Below, in pieces: positions 24,236 through 40,908 of a stretch of DNA of 64,000 nucleotides (its first letter is position 1; each line of letters begins with the position of its first letter). The notes below the pieces were generated by a model, which had not been told where the DNA came from, did no database searches, and saw nothing but the letters and a program-made list of their open reading frames with translations. A program made the translations under genes and the position numbers. Source of the stretch: Lama guanicoe (lineage: Eukaryota); NCBI GenBank assembly GCA_013239625.1, contig MU053881.1, positions 15,678,373 to 15,742,372 of the forward strand, written 5' to 3'.

Positions 24236-24300
24236 TCCATCGCAGGTGAATCTCAGGACAGTGGCAGACTCTGGGCAGAGGGGCGGGGTTGGAGGCGGGG

Positions 24301-24456
24301 CTAGAACTCCACCTTGCAGGCAGGGAAGGCCTCGTCCTGCATGGACACGGTGCTGTTGCTGCCCAGCACCGTGATGCCCAGCGCCTGGTGCCGGGCATGT
24401 GTCTCCTCGTACCACTCATGCATCACCACTGAGTCGAAGGTGGGGATCAGGGTCAC
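24301..24456 (-). CDS. MAP1S: MAP1S exon 7 (light-chain C-terminus VTLIPTFDS...FPACKVEF*)
   Basis: Conserved MAP1-family C-terminus, TAG at 24301-24303, cag acceptor. Confidence 0.96.
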   Translation of the reverse strand: MTLIPTFDSVVMHEWYEETHARHQALGITVLGSNSTVSMQDEAFPACKVEF

Positions 24457-25415
24457 CTGTGGGTGGGACAGATGGACCAACGGTGAGGGGCAGCACCCTC
24501 TTCCCTCCCGCCCCAGCCCTATGGCCGCTGAGGCCCCTCTTCTCTGACCACCTTTGCTCTGCCTCCATTCTCTCTCGCTTGGATGTCTGTAGCTGCTGCC
24601 AGCCAGTCCTTGAAGTCCCTTCTCTTTCCCACAGCCCCCAAGGACCCTTCTACAATCCAGGAGACCAGACTACTCCTCTGTGAATTCCTCTCCACGCTTC
24701 CACCCACCCTCCACCACCACCCTCTCCCACTTTCACCCCCCAGGCCTCCCTCCAGCTCCTTGAATGCACCAAGCTTGCTCCCCACTTCGGCCTCTGCCTG
24801 TGCTGTGCCCTCGGCCCGGGACTCTCCCTCCCAGCTGCTCCGGAAACTGTGTGCCAGGCCAGGTGTCACACACTCAACCCCTGAGTGGGCAGCCAGGTAC
24901 CTGGAGACTCCTACCTAAACTCGCCTCCCCCTTCAAGGTTCTACTTCAAAGCTTCCTGTGGAAATGACGCCAACCCTTGGGGCCAATTCTCAACTTTCTC
25001 AGCTGCATAGACACCACACACACTCCCTGTTTCCTCCTGGCCAATCCTCATAATGTTGGGGAGGTTAAGGGGCAGAGGTCAGGGGAGGTGATCAAACCAG
25101 CCCCATCCACGCCCTCATCCAGGTTTGCGCAGACACACAAGGAAGTGGATGTAACAGGAACGTAGTCCTGAGGGCTGGGAGGGACTCTGGCATTTGGCCT
25201 CACTGCCCCATGGCCATGGGGACATGGCTTAGTCTCTCTGAGCTCCGCTCCCTCCTCTGATGTGGGTGAAGGTCACTTCGACCTCACAGGACTGTGCGGG
25301 TTTAACAGGAAGACATCAGGAAGCATTGACCCCACCCTGTGCCAAGAGCTTAGGCAATGTCCCCCTGCCATCTGCTGCCCTCAGGACTGTCCTGAGGCCC
25401 CCGCTGGTCACTCAC

Positions 25416-25651
25416 CTGGAGGTCCCGGTCCCACTGCTGCTTGCCAGCCAGGAGCGCATCTAGGACGGCCCGCATGCCCTCCTCCTTGTGCTGGTCCTGG
25501 CCACTGATGACGTAGCAGAGCGCACGCACCCGCCGGAAGAACTCCTCGTCCACCAGGCGGGCACTGCCCCCGCTGGGCAGGTAGGCCAGGTCGAGGTACA
25601 CAGGGGAGCCAGGTGGGGCTGCTGACCCTCCTGGCCGACTGCCAGCTGACC
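25416..25651 (-). CDS. MAP1S: MAP1S exon 6 (PVYLDLAYLP...VRALCYVISG...QQWDRDLQ)
   Basis: 236 nt, MAP1 light-chain motif, cag/gtgagt boundaries, phase fits. Confidence 0.96.
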
Positions 25652-26604
25652 CTGTGGGCAACAGGGATGGGGTCAGTCATGAGCTCCAGGGACAGGAAAG
25701 GGGCTGAGACCCAGGGCCCGAGATGAGGCTCCCAGCTCCACCTGCACCCCTCTTGAGTGGCTCCCTCCCTGGCAGAGGTCTGATCTCACCGTTTTATGGT
25801 TGACAAGCCCTCCCTGTGAGCAGCAGTTACTCAATGAACCCTGCAAACACCCTGGCCAACCCCTCAGTGCCTGGATCCTTCCTGGCTAGTCCCTGGACAC
25901 AGACACCCCCAGGGCCTGTGGGAGGGGGCAACCAACAAGGACTTCCTGGAAGAGGGAGTTTTGGAGGTTGAGCCCCTAAAGCAGCAGTACCTGGAATGCT
26001 CTGCTGCTTCAGCAGCATCCATCTGTTCGATTACTCAAGGGGCATTTATCAGGTGTTTATCAAACCCTCCTGGGCACCATAGCCTAGGGACATGGCAGTG
26101 ACTAGAACAAAAATTCCTGCCCTTAAGGGTGATGGGGAGCCAGAGTGGGTGTGGGAAGGACAGAGTTGCAAGTGGGAGAAGCAGGATGGGGCAGCCTGGA
26201 TGGAGATAGGGCAGCTGCTCTCCAGGCCTTGTCAAGGGGGACAAGGCCACCACTCCTGGGCCAGGGAACTCATCAACTGATGGGAGGACAGAGCTGGGTC
26301 TTGGGCACAGGAAACCCTCCAGATGTTTGGCATCTTATGCTCATAAACACTACCCAGACCAGGATATAGCACCAGGGGGCATTTGCAGAATGAATGAAAC
26401 CCCCAGCTTTGGGCAAGTAGCATCTCTTGCTCATAACTGGGGACGGTGGCATCAGGGATCCTGAGCGGAGCCTCAGGAAGGGAAAGCCACCATGGCTGTG
26501 GAAAGCAAGAGGGAGACAGGAGCAGCAGAAGGACAATAGCAAAGAGAAGATGAGGGGAACGTGGGCAGAAGCCGTGGGGCGCGAGGACAGGGGTAGAGTG
26601 GGAC

Positions 26605-27445: not shown

Positions 27446-29100
27446 GTTTCTACCAAACATTTAAAAAACTAATACCAAGCCTTCTCAAAATTTTCCAAAA
27501 AACTAAAGAACAGGAAATACTTCCCAACTCATTCTATGAGGCCAACATTGCCGATACCAAGGTCAGACAAAGACACTATGACAAAAGAAAACTAGTGACC
27601 AATAACTTTTATGAATATTGATGCAAAAATTCTCCACAAAATACTAGCAAACCAAATTCAGCAGATCATAAGGATCATACACCATGACCAAGTGGGATTT
27701 ATTTCTGGGATGCAGGGATGGTTCAACATACAAAAATCAATCGATGTAACATACCATATTAACAGAATGAAGGAAAAAAAACACATGATCATCTCAATTG
27801 ATGCAGAAAAGGCATTTGACAAAATTCAACACTCTTACATCATAAACATACTCAACAAAGTAGGAATAGAAGGAAAATATCTCAACATAATAAAAACCAT
27901 ATATGGAAAAACCCACAGATCATACCATAATTAATGGAGGAAGACTGAAAGCTTTTCCTCTAAGATCAGGAACAAGGCCAAGATACCTGTTTTAGCTACT
28001 TCTGATCAACAAAGTACTGGAAATTCTAGCCAGAGCAATTAGGCTAGAAAAAGAAACAAAAGGCATCTACATTAGAAAGGAATAAGTAAAGTTCTCTCTG
28101 TTCACAAATGATACAATGTTATGTGCAGAAAATGCTAACGATTCCACACACACAAAAAACCTATTAGAACTAATAGATGAATTTGGTGAAATATTTGTAT
28201 ACAGAAACTACAAAACACTGCTGAAAGAAACTAAAGAGGACATAAATTAATGGAAAGCTATCCCATATTCATGGATTGGAAGACCTAATATTGTTAAGAT
28301 GCCAATACTACCCAAAGTGTTTCTACAGATTCAATGCAATTTCTATCAAAATTCTCAATGAATTTTTTTCTGCAGGTGTAGAATAATACATTCTAAAACT
28401 CATATGGAATCTCATAGGATCCCAAATGGCCAAGGCAATCTTGAAAAAGAACAACAAAGGTGGAGGACCCACATATCCTGATTACTACAAAACTACAGTA
28501 ATCAAGGCAATATGGTACTGGTATCAAGACAGACATATAGATCAATGGAACATAATAGAGAGCCCAGAAATAAACCGTCACGTATATGGTCAAATGATTT
28601 TTGACAAGGGTGCCAAGAACATTTAATGGGGGAAAGGGCAGTCTTTCAGCAAATGGTCCTGGGAAACTGGATATCCACATGCAAAAGAATGAAGTTCAAT
28701 GCTTATTTAGCACCATACCCAAAAATTAACTCAAAATTGATCAAAGAGCAAAATATAAGAGTTAAACCTACAAAATTCTTAGAAGAAAACATAAGGCAAA
28801 AGCTTCATGACACTGGATTTGGCAATGACACCAAAAAGCACCAGCAACAAAAAACAGACAAACTGGATTTTATGAAAAACTAAACTTTTGTGCATCAAAA
28901 GACACTAACAACAGAGTAAAAAAGGCAACCCACAGAATGGGAAAAATATTTGGAAATTGTATATCTGATAAGATATAGAGAGACAATACACAGAGAACTC
29001 TCAGAACCTAACCACAAAAAGACAAATAACCTGACTCAAAAATGGGCAAAGGACAGTCCCACAAAGATACACAAATATCTAAGAAGCACATGGAAAAGTG
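27446..29100 (+). mobile_element. L1 ORF2 fragment (RT region onward), truncated at both ends
   Basis: [58 protein letters not shown]. Confidence 0.92.
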
Positions 29101-29107
29101 ATCAATA

Positions 29108-29179
29108 TGCCCACACTGTACAGCCATGTGGCTTATGCTATACACCTGCTTGCCCCTTTCTGGGGAGTCTGGAATTTTG
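29108..29179 (+). mobile_element. MER68-like ERVL LTR, left piece
   Basis: ...ctggggagtctggaattttgg joins seamlessly to 37945 once the provirus is removed. Confidence 0.6.
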
Positions 29180-29184
29180 GTGTA

Positions 29185-30229
29185 TGCAATACTGTGATTT
29201 ATAAGAAATCTATATACAGTTGGGTCATTCACAGATGTATTTGGTCTTCATCCACAGTTCCTATCTCACAGCTCCCCAAACCCTTGGATTTCCTGATCAG
29301 TAAGAGCAATGGAAGCATCTTCTGTTATAATATTTGGTTTCCTGGCCTCAGTTCCAGAAACTACTTCAGGGCCATAAAAGTGAAATAGGTGTCTTGTTAT
29401 TCATAACAAGCCCTTTCCATCACAACTAGGTTTATGTTAATGAAGGTGACTTTGAATCCCATCCCAGGGTGGGAGCTAGTTGCCATGTGATTAGAAGGTT
29501 GGAACTTTCAGTCCTGCCCTCTTCCTCCCCAGTCTCTGGGGAGAGGAGAGGGCTGAGGTTGAATCAGTCGCCACTGGCCAATGATTCGGTCAATTATGAC
29601 TGTAATGAAGCCTCCATAAAAGCCCCAAAGGAGAGCTTTTTGGCCCTTTTTCAAAGCTTCCACATCTGGGGACCAGAACACTTCTGCGTGCCACTGTGTG
29701 GGGCCCCAAGCTCCACAAGGACATCAGATCCCTTGTTCAGGACCTCATCCTATGCATCTCTTCATCTGTTTGTTGATTTGTATTCTTTAGTGTCATTTTA
29801 TAATAATTGGTAATCTAGTGAGTAAATTGGTCTTCCTGAATTCTGTGAGCTGTGCTAGCAAATTAATCAAAGCCAAGACAGGGGTCATGGGAACCTCTGA
29901 TTTATAACCAGTCAGTCGGAAGCATAGGTAACAAATTTGACTTGCAATGGCATCCTCAGTTGCAAGGTGTCGTTCAGAACCTCCAGTTTATAGCCAGTTG
30001 GTCAGAAGCACAAGTAGAAACCTGGGCTGTGACTGGTATCTGAAGAGGAAGGTGGTCTTGTGGGACTGAGCCCTTTACCTGTGGAATGTGATTCTATCTC
30101 CAGGTAGATAGTGTCAGAATTGAACTGAATTCTTAGACACCCTGAAAGTGTCCAAGAAGCTCCTCTACCCCTCAACACACACACACACACACACACACAC
30201 AATGGAATTGGAACCAGGAACCCTTTTTG
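29185..30229 (+). repeat. 5' LTR (MER21-like)
   Basis: Starts tgcaatactgtgattt, aligns by eye to 37039-37939 along its length, followed by PBS. Confidence 0.85.
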
Positions 30230-30231
30230 GT

Positions 30232-30249
30232 TGGTGTCAGGCGTGGGAT
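30232..30249 (+). other. Primer-binding site complementary to tRNA-Leu 3' end
   Basis: tggtgtcaggcgtgggat versus expected TGGTGTCAGGAGTGGGAT, directly after the 5' LTR. Confidence 0.85.
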
Positions 30250-30299
30250 TTGTTAGAATGGTCCTGGTTTATGGAAACATGTGTTTTTTGAAGAGAAAG

Positions 30300-33200
30300 A
30301 TAAAAGGGCGGACAATGAGGAAACTGACTCATGGATGGTTACCTGGTCACCCATAGTAAGAAACTGCAGCTGTGATATGATCAGTTACTAAAGGTAAAAG
30401 TTACCAGTGGAATGTAGAAATGGTAGTAGACCCAACTTCCAATGAGTTGGTTCATTGGATATATAAGAAGTGTCAAGTAATAAGCAGCATGCTACATATA
30501 CAGTTTCCTGGCTATTGTTTCCTGTAATACCCTAAATGAAAGTTTAAAAAAGTGCTTGTTTGGGCCTTGATGCTGAACCAATTTCAGATTTGGGTCAATC
30601 TAGGCTTTGGCCATTAGCCTCAAAACTGCCCAGAAAGAGGGAAATTAGGCAGGGGCAAAAGGAAGTACCTCTAAGATTTCTGGTCACCAAGAAGGCAGTG
30701 AATATAGGGAGAGGGCAAAAGCATGAAACAACCAAAAGCAGGGGCTACAGTATGAAGAAACTGACTCATTTTGTGGATTAGTACCATCAGTTTCCTGAAG
30801 ACCCTTTACCAAAACGGACTGCAAGAGTAACCAATTTGGAGGCTGTGGCTTTGGTTTTGAATGCTGCAGGGCAAAAGAGCGTGTTTGGGTTGACGTAGGA
30901 CCTGCAGCTCCCTGCTGAACAATCAGCGACGGCTGTGTGTGATCCAGACACCCAGGAGGTTATCGTCAAAGGAACAGCCAGCCTGATGGACTGGACAAAA
31001 GCCACTGGAAAGTTTATCCTGTGGAGGAGGACTACCCGACTCCCACTATGAATGCCAGATAAAGTGGCTGAGATGCTTCCTAGGCAAGCCATGTGGGGTT
31101 GGTTTTGAGGTAACTGGGACATTCACCCACTGAACATGCCCATTACTCAGGTTATGGTAAATGCTGTGATGAAGGGAATCCCTGTTGCATGGGGCACCCC
31201 CATGTAACTTTACTGCCACAAAACTGAACAATAGTTCAAGAAGCCTCATCAGATCTGCTGTCTCAGCTTCCCCTGTGGGTCTTACTGACACCAAAAACAT
31301 TACAGAAAGAGACTCACAGACAGAGAAAACAAACTAAACTTATGGTTACCAAAGGGGAAAGGGGCCAGGGGAGGGATAAATTGGGAGTTTGGGATTAGCA
31401 GATACAAACCAATATATACAGAATAGATAGACAACGAGGTCCTACCATACAGCACAGGGAGCTATATTCAATAGCTTGTAGTAATCTATAGTGAAAAAGA
31501 GTATGAAAAAGAATATATAACTGAATCACTACGCTGTACACCAGAAACTAACACAACACTGTAAATCAACTATACTTCCAAAGAAAGAAGGAAAGAAAGA
31601 AAGGAAGGAAGGAAGGAAGGAAGGAAGGAAGGAAGCAGGGACAAAGGGGAGAGAAAGGGACTCGACACAGCAGAGTGGAACTCCTCAGACTGCTGTTGAA
31701 ACATGGCATGAATAAAGCTGACATTGACAGAGTTGAAACAGGTGTCGACTTAGAACTATTAAAAGGCCCCAAACAAGTCCACTCTATTTATTTATCTATT
31801 TATTTGGAGGAGTTTAAAAAGCTGGAAAGCAAAGGTTACAAAGAGAAACCTGACCAGGAATCCCCTGGGGTGATGATCAGGAAGATTAATCAAGATAAAG
31901 ACTGAAGTAGAGGCCAGGGTCTTCTGGCCCCACCCCCAGGCAGGGACCCAGACATATGCACATGTGTGGATAAAACAGCCAGGAGAGGAGAGGAAACTTT
32001 CCTGGAACTCCTTGATACAGGAACCCAAAGCACTGTGATTCCAACACCTGTTGGTGAAGTCTTAGCAGGACCTAAGGTTAGACTGGGAGGAACTGTAAAT
32101 GCAAATACAGTTGGGAGCAAGGTGAAATTTGGATGAAAACTGGGATGTTTATGAACAGATTTGTGTGAGGTGGTCAGATCTCCTTTACCTGAACATATTC
32201 TTGGGATGGGTACTATGTCTGGGGATTGCTACCCCTACTTCATATTGTAAAGCAGAGGCATGTAAGTCCGCCCTCCAGCTAACTGCCTAGGACAGGTGGC
32301 TAACTTGGAGCAATCTAGAACGCCTGGTAGACAAAAAGACACCCACTTTAATTCATGATATACTAGAAGCTGGAGTGCTGGTACCAAGGGGTTTGCAGTA
32401 TGATAGTCCTGTGTGGCGGAGGGTTCATGGAGACTGAACAGTAGCCTATCAAGGCTCAAATTAAGTTGTACAGCCCATGGGCTCAGCAGTTCCGGACGTG
32501 GTTTCAATGCAAGGCGGCTACAGAAAACGCAAGGCGTCTGCTACTTCCCATCTCAGAAAAGAGCCAGCAGCAGCTGGCCTTCATGTGGGATGGATCCCAA
32601 TTTACTTTTCCTGTGCTGCCGCAGGGGTATCTGAACTCACGGGCTTACTGTCACAATTTGGTCACAAGGGAAGGGACGTGACGTGGGTCTCCAGTGTCAC
32701 AATAAATTGCATTGATGGTGTTATGATGGTAGTGGAAATGGAAGAACAGGCTGGGACTGATTTGAATTCAACGGTGACGCACATGACCACAGCGCGGGGT
32801 TGGGGGGAGTTTAGTAAATCCAGCAAAGGTCCTTGGGCCTGCCCAGACAGTCAAATTCTTAGGAAGAACCTGGGCAGGAGCCACCTGGGATCTTCCACAG
32901 AGACTAAAAATAAACTGCTGTCGCTACCCAGGCCCCGATCAAACAAGCAGCCCAGCGTTTGGTTGGCTTGGATTTCGGAGCATGCGTATTCCACATCTGG
33001 GAACACTGCTAGCTCCCACCTCTAAGACTACCTGAAAGAAAGCTGTATCTGAGTGGGGACCTGAATAAGGCAGTGTCTGAATTACAAAGGGAAGCAGACC
33101 TCTCAATGCCTTTGGGCCCTTATGACTCCGACTCCGACTTGATTTTGGGAGTGTCTGCCATCATCCTAGGCAGACTGGAGTTTATGGCAAAAGACCAGGA

Positions 33201-35230
33201 GTACCTCCCAGCAGTGACCACTGGGATTTGGGGCCAGAAGATTCCAAGATGCTGCTGCCCGTACAGTATTTGAGAGACAATTATTAGCCTGCAATTGGGC
33301 ATTAACTGGAATTGCTTCAATGACTGATGGACATAAATTAATCATGAAACCTGAGATACCCACAATGCCTTGGGTGATGTCAGAGAAACCCTCTAATAAG
33401 GAAGGCAACACCCAGAAGAGTTTCAGAGTAAAACGGAAATGGTTCATACAGGAGCATGCTGCCAGGGGAAAGCAGGGAGATGCCTGCTGTATCATGATCA
33501 GGTAGCCTCTTTTCCTCTAGAACCGACTTTGGAGCCCCCTGAGGAGCTGCTGGAACAGACTGGCACGTGGACGTGCCCTGTGAACATCTCTCAACTGAAC
33601 AACAAACTGCTGCTTGCTTTACAAAGGGCAGTTTCAAGATGAATGGACAATATGCCGTTTGGAAAGCAACCACATTAAGACTGGCGGATGCAAGACTGAC
33701 TGAAGAAGGCAAGAACTGATCCGCTGAGTGGCCTGAACTGCACGCCGTTTTCCCAGCAGTGGTGGAAGAAATTGAGCAACAGTAAAAGCCCTTATGTTTG
33801 CGGTTTGACCGACTCATGGGCCACAGCCCGTGGCCTGGCCATATGGTCAGGTGGCTGGGCAATGGAAATCTGGACTATTAAAAGGGCGCCTGCAAGGGGC
33901 ACAGCCCTATGGAAATCACTCTGGGAATTTAAGAGGTGCCTTAAAGCAGGACATGTCCATGCCCATCAGAAGAACCCCTTCCAGGTTTGGAAGGTGACTG
34001 AACCACCAAGCGGATCTTTTGGTGTGCTCCCTGAGGTGGCCATGGATCAGGGTCTGTGAATGACTGGACGTTGGGGAGGGGTGCAGCAATGCAGGGCGGG
34101 TGGCTAAACCCAGATATATTCGTCTGGCAGCCTGCAAGGCACAAAAGGCCAATAAGAACCGTCAACAAGAGAGAGAAACCACAGATGGCGATGGGGGAAA
34201 CTCCCCGGGGGCAAGGCCTGGCCCAGAGCTGACAAGCGGATTACACTGGACCCATGCCAGTGGCCCCCGGGGTGGGATGAGGTGAGCACTATGAACGAGT
34301 CCTAACAGGAACAGACAGTCCGGGCTGGGTTTTCATACCTGATAGTAGATGCAAACGCTCAAGACAGTATTACGGGACTGGAACAGAAAACACCGTGACC
34401 ATTTGAGCCACTGAGTTGTAATTCTTCGGACCGAGGGACACACTTTACAGCCCATATCGTCCAACAGTGGGCCAAGAGACCACACACCAGATGTGCTGTA
34501 TTATCACCCTCAGAATGATGGTTTACTAGAAAATCGGAATGGGTGGCTGCCATGTTTGCTGTCTAAAATAGGGGGGAAGATAAAGCCATGAGAGGTGGGC
34601 TTAAACGCCTTCACAAGTGTGTGCTCATGCTTGACATCAGGGGGTTAAGGGGGGTCCCCACCGGATAGGTTCCTCCCCTTTTCTGGGGGATGTGGGGAAG
34701 TGGGGGTGGGGGAGGATGCTGACGCAACTGTCATTCTTCCCCACGTCACAGCAACTTTCTTTTTCTCTACTTGATGCAGTGGTCCCAGGACCAGGGATGC
34801 AAGTGTGGGTGCCAGAAGCAGGGATGACTCCTAAACCAGAAACGGGAACCACACCTTTAAATCTTCATGTCAGAGTTCCTAAGGGCCTGATGGAGGTGGG
34901 GCCTTCAGCCCTCAGGCAAAGCTGGGGCCACCAGTGAGTGCTGCTGTGCTGCCTGTGGTTCTGTACCCGTGTAACCCCACTCTACACGGGTGGCAGTGGA
35001 CAGAGGGGGAGGCACTCGCTAGCCTGGTTTGCTGCCAGCCGTCTGGACCAGCACAGTGGCTGAACCTCCTGTCCCCGTCCAAGGGTGGAAAAGTTTGGGT
35101 AAAGATAAATGACAAGTGGAGAGAAGGAGAAATAATAGCTGAGGGTAAAGTGATGAATAAGTGGGTTATGCAACGAGGGAAATCCAACATTTTATTAATA
35201 GCTGGAGAGAGGCTCAGAGCAAGAGAATAA
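30300..35230 (+). pseudogene. Decayed ERV-L gag-pro-pol-dUTPase (many stops and frameshifts)
   Basis: gag RGYSMKKLTHF (about 30740); protease LDTGTQSTVIP 32011-32043; RT WDGSQFTFPVLPQGYLNS (about 32586-32640) and CIDG in place of YIDD; RNaseH LTDSWATARGLAIWSG and HVHAH; IN SDRGTHF (about 34426); dUTPase-like VWVPEAGMTPK..PLNLHVRVP; C-terminal GEIIAEGK..WV. Confidence 0.85.
31301..31635 (+). mobile_element. L1 3' end with (GGAA)n tail inserted in proviral gag
   Basis: gactcacagac..atggttaccaaagggg..agcacagggagctatattca..gtaaatcaactatacttc, similar to 60240-60500. Confidence 0.85.
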
Positions 35231-35606
35231 TTCAATCTCTCAGCAGAAGCACACCAGATGCCCGGCAGGGTGAAGCTAGTTTGCTGAAGCCAGCCCTGCT
35301 TTGGGGACCTGACAAGACTGAATAGGCAGCCTGCTGATCTGAGCGGCATCACTCTAGGAGACATTCTGGTCTTAAGATATATTGATGAACAGGACCAACT
35401 GTTAATGACTAAATGGAATTCTGGTGATTCCAGCAATGTGCCTGGATCTTCTGACTCCTAGTTTTCAGGCTACATCTACTACCAAGGATATCATTTGGGG
35501 AGGAATTTCCAAGAACTGCTCCCTACTAAGACTTCAAACTATGTGGTGCGGGGCTCTGAGCTGACAGATCTATGTAATCACCGTGTAATTCTCAATCTTG
35601 ATGACC

Positions 35607-35678
35607 AGGGAGAGGTAAATTAGGAATTTGGGATAGGCAGATACAACCTACTATATAAGAAATAGATAAAAAACAAAA
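35607..35678 (+). mobile_element. Short L1 3'UTR fragment inside the env-like region
   Basis: Similar to 31371-31435 (gggataaattgggagtttgggattagcagatac). Confidence 0.6.
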
Positions 35679-36837
35679 TCCATGGTGCATTCAACAACAC
35701 TGGCCCCAAGACAGAAAAGAGCCTTAGGGGACATCAGTGCTAAATCTAGGTATCCTAGGACAAGTTGGATTCGCTCTTAATGAGCAGCAACATTCACTAG
35801 AAAAAGATTAACTGGAATAGGCAGATTAGAGGGAGGTCTCATCCAGGAAGGCAAAGGATGGGAGTCAGTCTGGAAAGAGAATGAGGTTTTAGCAAAGTGG
35901 GTCAGGCAGACTCAGCCAATAATGCTGGACGGGCTAGAACCCAGTGCTGGGAAGGGGCCTGTTCTCTGACCTAAAAAGGCCTCTCAACAAAATAGTATTT
36001 TGTATTAAAATAAATACAAACAGAGACTGAAGTGGCCCCCCAATCCTAGCTGCTGAGGCTCAGGGGCACCCACACCTATGTTACGGCCCTTCAAGCTTAA
36101 GGAAACTCTCTGGGAGGATCTGTGGTTTACAAAGATGGACCCTGACTGCTCTCACCCCCAGTAAAGCTAGAAATAAAACATATCCTGTGGTCCAGTTAAC
36201 AGGGACAGGAATATTCTAAATACCATTCATGTCTTCCCCGAGGGAGGTGGGCCCTGCTAAACAACACATGATGGAAACCAGACTCCACACAAGCCTGTGA
36301 GCTGAGACTGGGTGAGTGGCTTTGTCTTTGGTGACCTTGGAATCTGGAGCTAACTGACTCATGGCCAATTGTCACGACCCTTGTCCTTAATAATATCTGT
36401 CATATGTGCAAAGGCAGATTTTTCTGGGAAGGAAAAGTGAACATCTCTGTAGTTCTGATTTGCTCTGTAATCAAACTGAATTGTACCGTGACCATATTTC
36501 AATATGGTGTAACCCTGGAGTTGGTAAGATTCAACTACTTTAGGTAAATAAGTCTTGTGATAATGCTGACAGTGATGATCAGATGCATTGGGAGACTAAG
36601 TTAAGCCTCCTCTGGATGTAATACACATGGAAAAGGACTGGCCCAAGGAGCAACTGGATCGAGCGAATCACCAGCTGATTTCTGTGCTAAATAGCTCTGC
36701 ACAAGTTTACCGCAAGTCCAAGTAGCAAATGACGTGTTTTTTTAAATTGATCCCTACCCAACACTGGCTTCTCCAAATGTTAGGCCTACTGGTGTTGGTA
36801 CATCGGCAGGGGGCGGATAGGGATTAGGTTTGTTTAT

Positions 36838-36920
36838 TTTTCAATGGGCGCTATTGGGGATTGAACACAGGACCTCATGCATGCCAGGCATGCGCTCTAC
36901 CACTGAGCTGGACCCTCCCC
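36838..36920 (-). mobile_element. tRNA-derived SINE inserted in the proviral env-like TM region
   Basis: ggggattgaac..gctctaccactgagct. Confidence 0.85.
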
Positions 36921-37038
36921 GCAGTGTGGGTATACTATTGCTGTATCTGTTCTGTAACTGCTGTCCCATACACAGCTGCTGGGGTAGGTATGACTGTTTT
37001 GCCGTAAGGGATCTGTGTTCAAAGACCAGGGGGTGGAC

Positions 37039-37939
37039 TGTGATATTGTGATTTATAAAAAATATATACACTTGGTCATTCTCAGACGTATTTGGTCTTC
37101 ATCCACAATTCCTGGCTTACAGCTCCCCAAACCCTTGGAATTTTCTGCTCAATGAGAGCAAAGGCAACATCTTGTTACATTTGGTCTCTTGTCCTCATTT
37201 CCAGAAAACACTTCGGGGCCAAAAAGGTGAAATGGGTGTCTTGTTATGATTCATAACAACCCTTTCCATCACAACTGGATTTATGTTAATGAAGGTGACC
37301 TTGGATCCCATCCCAAGGTGGGAGCTGGTTGCCAGGAGAACCAACCACGTGATTAGAGGGTTGGAACTTTCAGTTCTGCCCCCTGATTTCCAGGGAGGGG
37401 AAGAGGAGTTTGAGGTTGAATCAGTCACCATTGGTCTATCATTTAGTCAATCATGACTGCGTAATGAAGCCTTCATAAAAGCCCCAGAGGACAGCTTTTT
37501 GGCCCCTTTTCAGAGAGTTTCCACATCAGGGAAACAGAACACTTCTGTGTGCCACCGTGCAGGGCCTCAAGTCCCACAAGGACATCAGATCTCGTTTGGG
37601 ACCTCACCCTATGTATCTCTTCATCTGTTTGTTGATTCGTATCCTTTAAGAGCCTTTTATAATACATAAGTAATCTAGTGAGTAAACAGGTTTTCCTGAG
37701 TTCTGTCATCTGCTCTGGCAAATTAACCGGACCCAAGGAGGGGGTCATGGGAACCTCTGATTTACAGCCATTTGGTCAGAAGCACCTGGACTTGTGACTG
37801 GCATCTGAAGTTGAGGGTGCTTGTGGGGTGGAGCCCTTTACCTGTGGAACACGGGTCTATCTCTAGATAGTGTCAGAATTGAAGGGAATTGTAGGACACC
37901 CAGCTAGTGTCCAAGAACTGGATCCAGGAACCCTTTTCA
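37039..37939 (+). repeat. 3' LTR (MER21-like)
   Basis: PPT agggggtggac then tgtgatattgtgattt...cccttttca, followed by TSD gcgta. Confidence 0.88.
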
Positions 37940-37944
37940 GCGTA

Positions 37945-38271
37945 CGTGTCAGGCAGAGGCTGCCTGCATGATCAGCCCCAACAGAAACCCTGGGTTCTGA
38001 GGTTCTAAGGAGTTTCCTTGGTGGACGGCACTTCACACGGGTCAGCAGAGCTCGTAGCTCAGAGAATGAAGCACATGGTGTGTAACTCCACTAGGAGAGG
38101 GCTCCAGAAGCTCGTGCCTGGTTTCCCTGGGACTCCCCCCTTGTCTTTTCCCTTCACTGATTCTACTCTGTATCCTTTTGTTGTAATAAATTTCAGCCAT
38201 GAGTCTGACTCTACACCGAGGTCTCCTAGCCAATCCTGGAACCTGGGGGTGGTCTTGGGAACCTGGACACA
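37945..38271 (+). mobile_element. MER68-like ERVL LTR, right piece
   Basis: aggcagaggctgcctgcatgatcagcccc...aataaa...gggggtggtcttgggaacctggacaca end. Confidence 0.7.
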
Positions 38272-38380: not shown

Positions 38381-38552
38381 ACTTGAGCACTTGGAATTAT
38401 AAATGCTTAAAACAGTCAGGTCAGAGCTTCCATTTTATAGGAGAAAACTGAGGCCCAGAAAGGGTGGCGGGTGTGGCTGAGACCACATAGCAAGTAGGGA
38501 ACAGGACTCAGGCAGGTAACCCACTGCAGGACTCCAGCCCCCAGGTACTTAC

Positions 38553-40908
38553 CTGATGGACCCCGAGTGGTCATCTTCGGGACTGAGGCCTTTCTGGACA
38601 GGGGTGTCCGACTTCCTCTGTCACTGGGCTCGCTCCGGGTGCTGAGTGGCCGACTGGCCCGGTCCCCACTGGTCAGCCCCTTGGTTTTGGCAGTGGTCAC
38701 TGAAGTGGCTTTGGGGGCAGCAGTGCCGGGGTTGGGGCGGCTGAGGGGCTTCCGGGTACGGCCGAGGCCCTCTCTCAGCCGGGCCTGCTCAGGAGGCAGC
38801 ATCTCAGGGTCCACCATGCAGATACTAGGTGGGGTGGGCAGCGGTGGGGGGATCTTGAGGGGGTCAGGCAGTGGGTCACGGCGAGGGACCCCAAAGCCCT
38901 CTGTATCCTCATCTGAGTCCGCAGTGCCGGGGGCAGCTGGCAGGGGGTCTGAGTCAGACAGGGTGGGCAGGGACTCACTAACAGATGTGGGTGGTGTCTC
39001 CTCGGCCCCTGGAGCACTCGCCCGCTCCTGGGACCGGGCACTGCTGTCATTGGAGCTGCCAGGGGACGAGGGTGCTGGAGCCATGGGGACGGCCTTGCGG
39101 TGCTCAAACTCACAGGGTGACACCAGACACAGGTCCACATCGTGCGGGGAGGCTGAGCGCCGCACCCGGGGGCCACAGAGTGGGAGGCTCAGCCCGGCTT
39201 CACTCGCAGTGGCAGGCGGTGGCGGGAGCACTTGCTCAAAGGAGACAGACAGAGACTCATCCACCTCTGTGGAGTGCGGGGAGCCCACCTCGGCAGGCAG
39301 CGAGGGCGTGGTCACTGTAGGGGACGCATCCGGCCCGGTCTCTCCACCCCGCAGCGGGCTCAGTGACAGTGGCCCACTGCTCTCAGCTGGGCCCTGGTGG
39401 GCTCCGGCGGGTGAGGGCGTGCATGGCTGGGGGGTGCTGGCGGCCAAGAGTAGCTCCAGGGTCTTCTCCTCCAAGCTGCCACCCTCTTCCCCAGCTGGGC
39501 TCAGCCCCAGCTCCAGGCTGCTCTCCTGGCTGGGTGTGGCCAGCAGCTGGGAGGCTGGAGAGCCACAGGCCTCTGTGGAGGGGCTGGCCTCTCCACAACG
39601 GAAGCTGGGGGGGCTGTGGGGCCCATTCTCTGTTGGTGGGACACCCAGGCGGGGTGTGTTCGGTTCTTTGCGGGGCTTGGGAGCCACCAGGGCACCTGCC
39701 TTCTTGCTGCTGACCACAGCAGGGGCCGCCCGGCGCACTTCCCGGGGCTGGGTCCGAGTGGTGTTCGGCTTGGGGTCTTTTTTTACCTCCCGGAGGTGCT
39801 TGGCTTCTTTCTCAGCCCTACGAGGGGCCTCAGCTCGTGGCGGCTCCTTCCGGGTCACCCCAGGGCGCTCTTGGGCAGACCTGGAGGGCGCTGCCAATCG
39901 ACCCTCTTTCCTCAAGCTGTCCCGGGAGCCCACGCTCTCCTTGCTCTCGGCTCGCCGAGGCCCCATCAGGTCCTGGGGGGTCACCACAGGCTCCCGCAAG
40001 AATCCCAGGTGCTGTAGGCGGACCAGGCCATCCAGGAGGCGGGCAGGCGGCGTGCAGCCAGGGAACAGCACACGCACCACCTTCTCAGCGGGGCCCGCGG
40101 GGTGCCACACCAGCAGGGCGCACACGGAGGCCAGCGTGTGGTCGGCAGTGGCCGAAGGCGGGTGCAGCACGTACATGTCCAACCGGCCCACGCCCATCTT
40201 CTGGAAGAGCACGGTGGGCTCGGCTGGCAGTGGCCCCCGGTTCAGGGGCAGGGGCGTGATGCCCAGCCGGGCCAGGAGGCTCAGGGCCAGCTCCGCCTCA
40301 TCCTCGCCGCGCACCAACCGTGAGGCAGCTGCCCGGGCATTGAGGAACACGACACCCAGGTTAGGGGAGATCAGCCTGCGCAGCCTGTCATCCCCGGAGC
40401 CCCCGCCAGCGGCTGCCTCCTCACGCTCTGCCAGCTTGCGCCGCAGCAGGCTGTTTAGGCCAGGGAGGCTGTCCGCACCCGCGTGGGTCACCAGCACAGC
40501 GTCCACCCGGTCCAGGTGCCGCACCAGTTTCCAGAAGCTCGACTTAGGGTTAGAGCCACCATTGACCAGCACGGTGAAGCCGTTGACGGCAAAAAAGGCA
40601 GCATCGCCGAGGCCACCAGGAAAAATGTAGCAGCAGGGCCGGGCAAGCCTGAGGAAGCCCACAGAGGCCGGAGGCTCAAGCAGCTCAAAGGGGGATGGTG
40701 GCTCCAGTGACTCGGCCACATACTCCAGGAACTCACGCAGGCCCTCAGCAGCTGGCAGCTGCACTGGAGGGTTCAGCCGCAGCTGGAGCACGCCCTGGAG
40801 GCCGGGCACTTCGGATGTCAGCTGGGCCCAGTCACCAAAGGTTGGGCAGGTGATGGTGAGCTTGGCTGGGCTGGCAGGTGGGGGTGTGGAGGCCAGGAGA
40901 TCCCGGAT
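38553..40908 (-). CDS. MAP1S: MAP1S exon 5 (large exon, 2356 nt)
   Basis: ORF 38416..40809(-) with PCCYIFPGG, FWKLVRHLDRVD, DVDLCLVSPCEF; tag acceptor 40909-40911 and gtaagt donor. Confidence 0.97.

Follow-up and report, generated by a model that had tools for sequence, protein, structure and literature searches.

Mammalian class III endogenous retroviruses (ERVs) are described as env-less or as carrying a class I-type Env (PMC4724089, PMC8278194, PMC5753468, bioRxiv 2024.07.05.601823). A provirus in Lama guanicoe raises the question of whether an element of the ERV-L class once had an envelope gene, and of which type. The provirus lies in a 64,000-nucleotide stretch of contig MU053881.1 (assembly GCA_013239625.1, positions 15,678,373 to 15,742,372, forward strand), referred to as the window; all coordinates are window positions. 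An initial annotation noted an Env-like fossil of about 1.8 kb between the end of pol and the polypurine tract (PPT), and proposed a layout like that of paramyxovirus and pneumovirus fusion (F) proteins. The region is the broken env of an old provirus with ERV-L marks, whose protein was probably a class I fusogen of the pneumovirus/paramyxovirus F type and not a gamma-type Env.

A decayed env gene with homologs

The env features are given with the corresponding residues of a complete cat protein.

35258..35608, + strand: env, N-terminal part of the upstream (surface) subunit; cat protein residues ~55-129; matches many other copies
35608..35681, + strand: 74-bp repeat fragment; 77% to 31369-31442; ~105 env codons are gone at the same place
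35709..35720, + strand: RQKR furin-type site, at the basic-site position of the relatives; frame breaks on both sides
35721..36040, + strand: env, fusion-peptide-like stretch rich in glycine and a long region predicted as helical, heptad repeat A (HRA)-like; cat residues ~258-367; helices of low confidence
36043..36606, + strand: env, beta region rich in cysteine and tryptophan; cat residues 369-562; ~36380-36575 corresponds to the predicted Ig-like domain II
36609..36782, + strand: env, heptad repeat B (HRB)-like and membrane-proximal region; cat residues 564-633
36785..36970, + strand: env, transmembrane anchor split by a short interspersed element (SINE, ~36838-36923), then CNCC (36953-36964)

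One frame of the window env, with stops written as X, was searched with phmmer against 1.84 billion proteins and returned 50 relatives at E ≤ 0.001, one of which is the complete 679-residue cat protein (P0022). The window env is collinear with this protein, with 202 of 483 aligned residues identical, although a few aligned columns across the repeat fragment are spurious. The best tblastn piece scored 61.2 bits against the cat protein versus a maximum of 24.6 for 100 shuffled controls. A word-based protein search with the window frame yielded 0 of 8000 candidates, and a metagenome scan gave 75 pattern matches with none confirmed. The env is part of the family, because the junction of this pol tail with this env start recurs in other copies. 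The window copy is dead. It has 9 frame breaks and at least 6 stops relative to the cat protein, two inserts and one large deletion, and no signal peptide was recognisable in it. The SINE in the anchor is tRNA-derived, with an Rfam tRNA match at 36854-36909.

The initial annotation placed its motifs correctly (pol stop, RQKR, glycine-rich stretch, helix-like run, WEGACSL, ACEL, split anchor, CNCC and PPT), and homology supports its observation of an Env-like fossil. The single frameshift it described does not survive the alignment, nor do some of its cysteine motifs: DPCP and LICSVIKLNCT do not fall in register with the cat protein and were rejected as env motifs, and the NICHM cysteines align to non-cysteines in intact relatives. 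The short upstream subunit it took as the original layout is mostly a deletion artefact, because cat residues ~130-235 have no counterpart in the window. The gap falls exactly at the 74-bp fragment, which we take to be L1-like, and the missing residues are present in the human relative. The intact upstream subunit is ~257 residues long with a cysteine-rich part, and a short-F2 layout as an original trait was rejected.

RQKR is likely the original cleavage site. Its frame differs from both flanks, and the flanking frame, interrupted by one stop, also continues across the site. At this position relatives carry either K-x-K-R or a decayed version, followed by a glycine-rich peptide.

Relatives in cats and other mammals

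The cat protein (LOC109503008) is an 'uncharacterized' RefSeq entry with an unbroken frame. Its cluster (P0022/P0051) has 11 members: 8 are full length in 8 felid species and 96.5-99.6% identical, and 3 (those of tiger and lion plus one other) stop short of the anchor. A second felid locus (P0079/P0081; Geoffroy's cat LOC123611597, jaguarundi LOC121033631) is also unbroken, with 682 residues and 85% identity to the first. An 814-residue lineage (P0080 cluster, 21 members) is 37% identical to the cat protein and open in many near-identical members; its tail is longer, and the usual place holds neither a basic site nor a glycine-rich peptide. The third lineage, 54-56% identical to the cat protein, includes a human model of 434 residues (hCG1648894, EAW99983.1, P0122), and the 35 members of the P0116 cluster are fragments of the same env family as the human model. 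Among the protein models, at least four env lineages, 37-56% identical, are present in different mammals. The searches, which are not sensitive enough for such distance, turned up no relative in birds, reptiles or fish.

In the felid cluster, C, W, G or P positions account for 3 of the 46 variable columns (p about 0.02), each of the 14 sequons is conserved and substitutions are not significantly conservative (p 0.12-0.22); these protein-level figures carry an ascertainment bias, with only open frames annotated and three entries truncated. The signs of constraint appear modest, and the unbroken cat protein may have been adopted by its host.

These proteins bear directly on whether the fossil is an ordinary gamma-type Env masked by decay. 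Known class III Envs are gamma-type (PMC4724089), and the upstream chain of the cat protein contains a CXXC, which also favors such an Env. The CXXC is missing from the ectodomain of the 814-residue lineage. The CX6CC motif, reported absent in the initial annotation, is missing from 4 of 4 full-length relatives and present in 0 of 9 further fragments. Cleavage site and anchor are ~375 residues apart in the full-length relatives, unlike the short ectodomain with an immunosuppressive domain of gamma-type Envs, and the intact relatives have no Env match in Pfam. Unless they are misaligned, the intact relatives already refute a gamma-type Env, the probability of which we consider negligible. Identity with CARenvV or ARTenvV, presumably gamma-like and anchor-less proteins, was rejected.

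Fold evidence for a probable F-type fusogen

The order of elements in the family is basic site, glycine-rich peptide, HRA-like helix, beta-rich region, HRB-like heptad, single anchor and cysteine-rich tail. The basic site and glycine-rich peptide occur in three lineages. The cat protein has a single strong hydrophobic peak, which is the anchor, a short N-terminal hydrophobic stretch and one cleavage site. A clear heptad signal is found in its HRB region, where 71% of a/d positions are hydrophobic versus 23% elsewhere in the protein. An Ig-like sandwich is predicted at the position of F domain II, and Foldseek matches it to the F proteins of respiratory syncytial virus (RSV) and of human metapneumovirus (hMPV) at ~10% identity. 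The top structural match in BFVD is A0A384ZVF2 (928 residues, E 7.6e-4), and a language-model search of Atlas returned neighbours carrying PF00523/PF12259. At the level of predicted models, all fold leads are viral fusogens.

Several results limit the F-type assignment. The structural support consists of one 65-residue domain plus the layout. Models of the regions of domains I and III are below a predicted local distance difference test score (pLDDT) of 50, so that the structural check envisaged in the initial annotation (AlphaFold-type models with Foldseek) gave RSV/hMPV F matches for the predicted domain II and fell short for the other two. The HRA heptad signal is weak (0.43 versus 0.34). 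Neither PF00523 nor PF12259 matches the intact relatives at E ≤ 1 to 5. Nothing relevant was retrieved from PDB sequences with the cat protein or with two profiles.

The protein could instead be a class I Env with a structural type of its own, or F-like only to the extent that coronavirus spike or foamy Env is, with the RSV/hMPV matches reflecting a generic Ig sandwich. This is unlikely given that the sandwich occupies the F domain II position in the chain, just before the second heptad, that the Foldseek alignments to F cover most of the 216-residue partial model, and that the language-model search agrees. A captured cellular or accessory membrane protein without a fusion role is very unlikely. 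The family has no name, and the 814-residue lineage, with neither basic site nor glycine-rich peptide, would suit such a protein; against it stand the env position between pol and the PPT, the occurrence of both elements in three lineages, the uniformly viral fusogen leads, and relatives that are all uncharacterised or repeat-like fragments.

F-like Envs have been described in lokiretroviruses of lampreys, fish, amphibians and reptiles (PMC7947760, PMC9040795), in foamy viruses (PMC11468914) and in invertebrate errantiviruses (PMC13524379, where vertebrate analysis is deferred to a later report). As in RSV/hMPV F (PF00523), the window family runs from the cleavage site through the fusion peptide, HRA, a beta-rich head and HRB to the anchor, and it has the predicted domain II sandwich. 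Unlike those proteins, it has no hidden Markov model match, an upstream chain of ~235 residues that includes an extra cysteine-rich part, a retroviral backbone and no attachment gene, and its identity to them is ~10%.

Lokiretrovirus Env, likewise a retroviral env product, resembles F and has an RXKR site, a fusion peptide, a coiled coil and an anchor. Lokiretroviruses form their own reverse transcriptase (RT) lineage, range from lampreys to reptiles and have an Env that matches PF00523 (E 2e-7) (PMC7947760, PMC9040795). The window element is mammalian, with an ERV-L-like RT, a dUTPase-like tail and no PF00523 match; the two Envs are set apart here by description. Lokiretrovirus membership was rejected on the RT, the tail and the missing PF00523 match. 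What stands of the initial annotation's interpretation, stripped of its short-F2 argument, is a probably F-type Env that is not gamma-type and has a long ectodomain, on a backbone of the ERV-L class.

Foamy Env, from the nearest exogenous kin of class III, has F-like domains I-III, a parallel that the initial annotation missed, and a long membrane subunit, but also a leader that spans the membrane, a pair of cleavage sites and a ~330-residue receptor domain inserted in domain III (PMC11468914). The cat protein, at 679 residues with a short hydrophobic stretch at its N terminus and a single site, has none of these last three traits, nor do the other cat proteins. No foamy Env chain is among the structural matches listed, which does not exclude a relation.

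An ERV-L-like backbone and the provirus

The window contains a full provirus with two long terminal repeats (LTRs), 5-bp flanks, a primer-binding site (PBS), degraded gag, pro-pol and env, and a PPT.

29185..30230, + strand: 5' LTR; 3' end approximate; internal extra stretch and CA repeat; GTGTA (29180-29184) just before
30232..30249, + strand: PBS, leucine type; 15 of 18 bases (hand count) equal the PBS typed L(CAG) in the PMC4724089 supplement
30290..31900 (approximate), + strand: degraded gag region between PBS and protease; no Pfam match; repeat insert from 31369
31930..35230, + strand: degraded pro-pol; DTG protease motif ~32014, RT, RNase H-like, integrase region, dUTPase-like piece; stop 35228-35230
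32547-32672, + strand: best RT piece, within degraded pro-pol
34797-34886, + strand: dUTPase-like piece, after the integrase region
37021..37038, + strand: PPT, directly before the 3' LTR
37039..37939, + strand: 3' LTR, then GCGTA (37940-37944), sharing 4 of 5 bases with the 5' flank

We read the backbone as ERV-L class from the RT hand count, the dUTPase-like tail, the leucine PBS and the 5-bp duplication. Hand counts for the 42-residue RT piece (32547-32672) against a published alignment give 24-25 identities to the ERV-L rows and 23 to XtERV-S, versus ~16 to bovine foamy virus and ~14 to murine leukemia virus (AKV). A PDB sequence search with this piece returned foamy Pol matches only, all weak. 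The 30-residue piece after integrase is identical to the HERVL dUTPase consensus at 14 of 30 positions by hand count; it had no match in Pfam or PDB searches. Window frames and pieces gave nothing at cut-off in Pfam, with no env or dUTPase match, and the sub-cut-off matches in pro-pol were RT_RNaseH (E 0.005) and gag-asp_proteas (E 0.21). The integrase, RNase H and dUTPase pieces found nothing relevant among PDB sequences. The target duplication of ERV-L is 5 bp (PMC8278194), and the GTGTA/GCGTA flanks and leucine PBS agree with ERV-L traits.

RT motifs, a dUTPase after integrase, a leucine PBS and a 5-bp duplication are common to the window element, ERV-L and the env-bearing class III elements HERV-S, HERVL32, HERVL66, XtERV-S and AnERV6/8. 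In contrast to the window element, ERV-L is described as env-less and the others carry gamma- or alpha-type Env (PMC8278194, PMC5753468, PMC4724089, bioRxiv 2024.07.05.601823). The env fossil departs from the 'no env gene' trait of strict ERV-L (HERV-L/MuERV-L). The LTR start and body appear to resemble MER21C. MER21 is listed with a leucine PBS, but no Gag, Pol or Env was recovered for it and its class is disputed (PMC4724089); the window copy has gag-pol-env.

The LTRs differ at 142 of 857 columns (Kimura two-parameter distance 0.19), which gives an age of ~43 million years at a published rate of 2.2e-9 or ~64 million at an assumed 1.5e-9. The 5' LTR has an extra ~95 bases at 29950-30045 that repeat the neighbouring segment and have no counterpart in the 3' LTR, and a CA repeat at 30160-30200 that is missing from the 3' LTR. 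The gag-region insert from 31369 is presumably an L1 3' end. Exons of a MAP1-family gene (PF25281), which we take to be MAP1S, bracket the provirus at 38419-40908 (- strand) and ~24300-25720 (- strand); the provirus is antisense and intronic. We take the flanks ~29100-29184 and 37940-38270 to be two halves of an older LTR, so that the provirus appears nested. An L1 remnant with RVT_1 at 27599-27931 lies upstream.

DNA runs under five organism labels from six studies contain 0.98-1.00 of the words of 35230-36830, most of these runs being possible sources of the window. From this word content, the env locus seems common to close relatives; the type of the SINE points to a camelid. RNA runs contain 0.12-0.56 of the words, which were not counted as env expression because the provirus is intronic.

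Proposed mechanism and origin

Modelled on F proteins and foamy Env, the precursor would be cleaved at the basic site into an upstream chain of ~235 residues and a membrane chain of ~420 residues. Receptor binding would fall to the extra N-terminal part, which is rich in cysteine, because no separate attachment gene is present. Following triggering, the first helix would extend, the fusion peptide would insert and the second heptad would fold back to form a six-helix bundle. Cleavage, receptor binding and fold-back would together imply that the founder was an enveloped, infectious class III retrovirus; we infer such an infectious env-bearing ancestor, as the initial annotation had.

The F-type env need not be the ancestral ERV-L env. 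It could have been captured by recombination in one ERV-L-related branch, an origin to which we give an even chance, and the choice between inherited and captured env is about even. Class III elements have repeatedly acquired foreign env genes (PMC4724089, PMC8278194, bioRxiv 2024.07.05.601823), and domain II matches pneumovirus F with no foamy Env chain among the matches listed. Inheritance is favored by the four or more divergent lineages in different mammals, which need a long history, and by foamy Env, from kin of class III, being F-like as well (PMC11468914). The fullest account would make the F-type Env the original ERV-L envelope, derived from an ancestor shared with foamy viruses and kept in several mammalian ERV families including human ones, with cats having adopted LOC109503008 and its orthologues as a host gene structurally unlike any described syncytin. 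We regard this whole account as doubtful, though well within reach.

A full-text literature search found no title or abstract start on an F-type env in mammalian ERV-L or on the cat locus; Dfam, Repbase, subscription journals and bioRxiv supplements may already annotate the frame. The available sections of PMC13709493, PMC11521997, PMC7499964, PMC11089739 and PMC12583693 do not mention such a gene, and six short family motifs were not found in the available PMC4724089 supplements.

Standard Env screens rely on the immunosuppressive domain and CX6CC, and an Env of this type would explain why they missed it. The question becomes open to direct test through the unbroken proteins of cats and the 434-residue human model, which also supply a candidate for env co-option. 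With an F-type Env on an ERV-L-class backbone, the known range of such retroviral envelopes, which covers fish, reptiles and foamy viruses, would widen to ordinary mammalian ERVs, and this would bear on the question of F as the ancestral retroviral fusogen. If true, the missing envelope of ERV-L would have a candidate, and a new viral gene adopted by a host may have been found as well.
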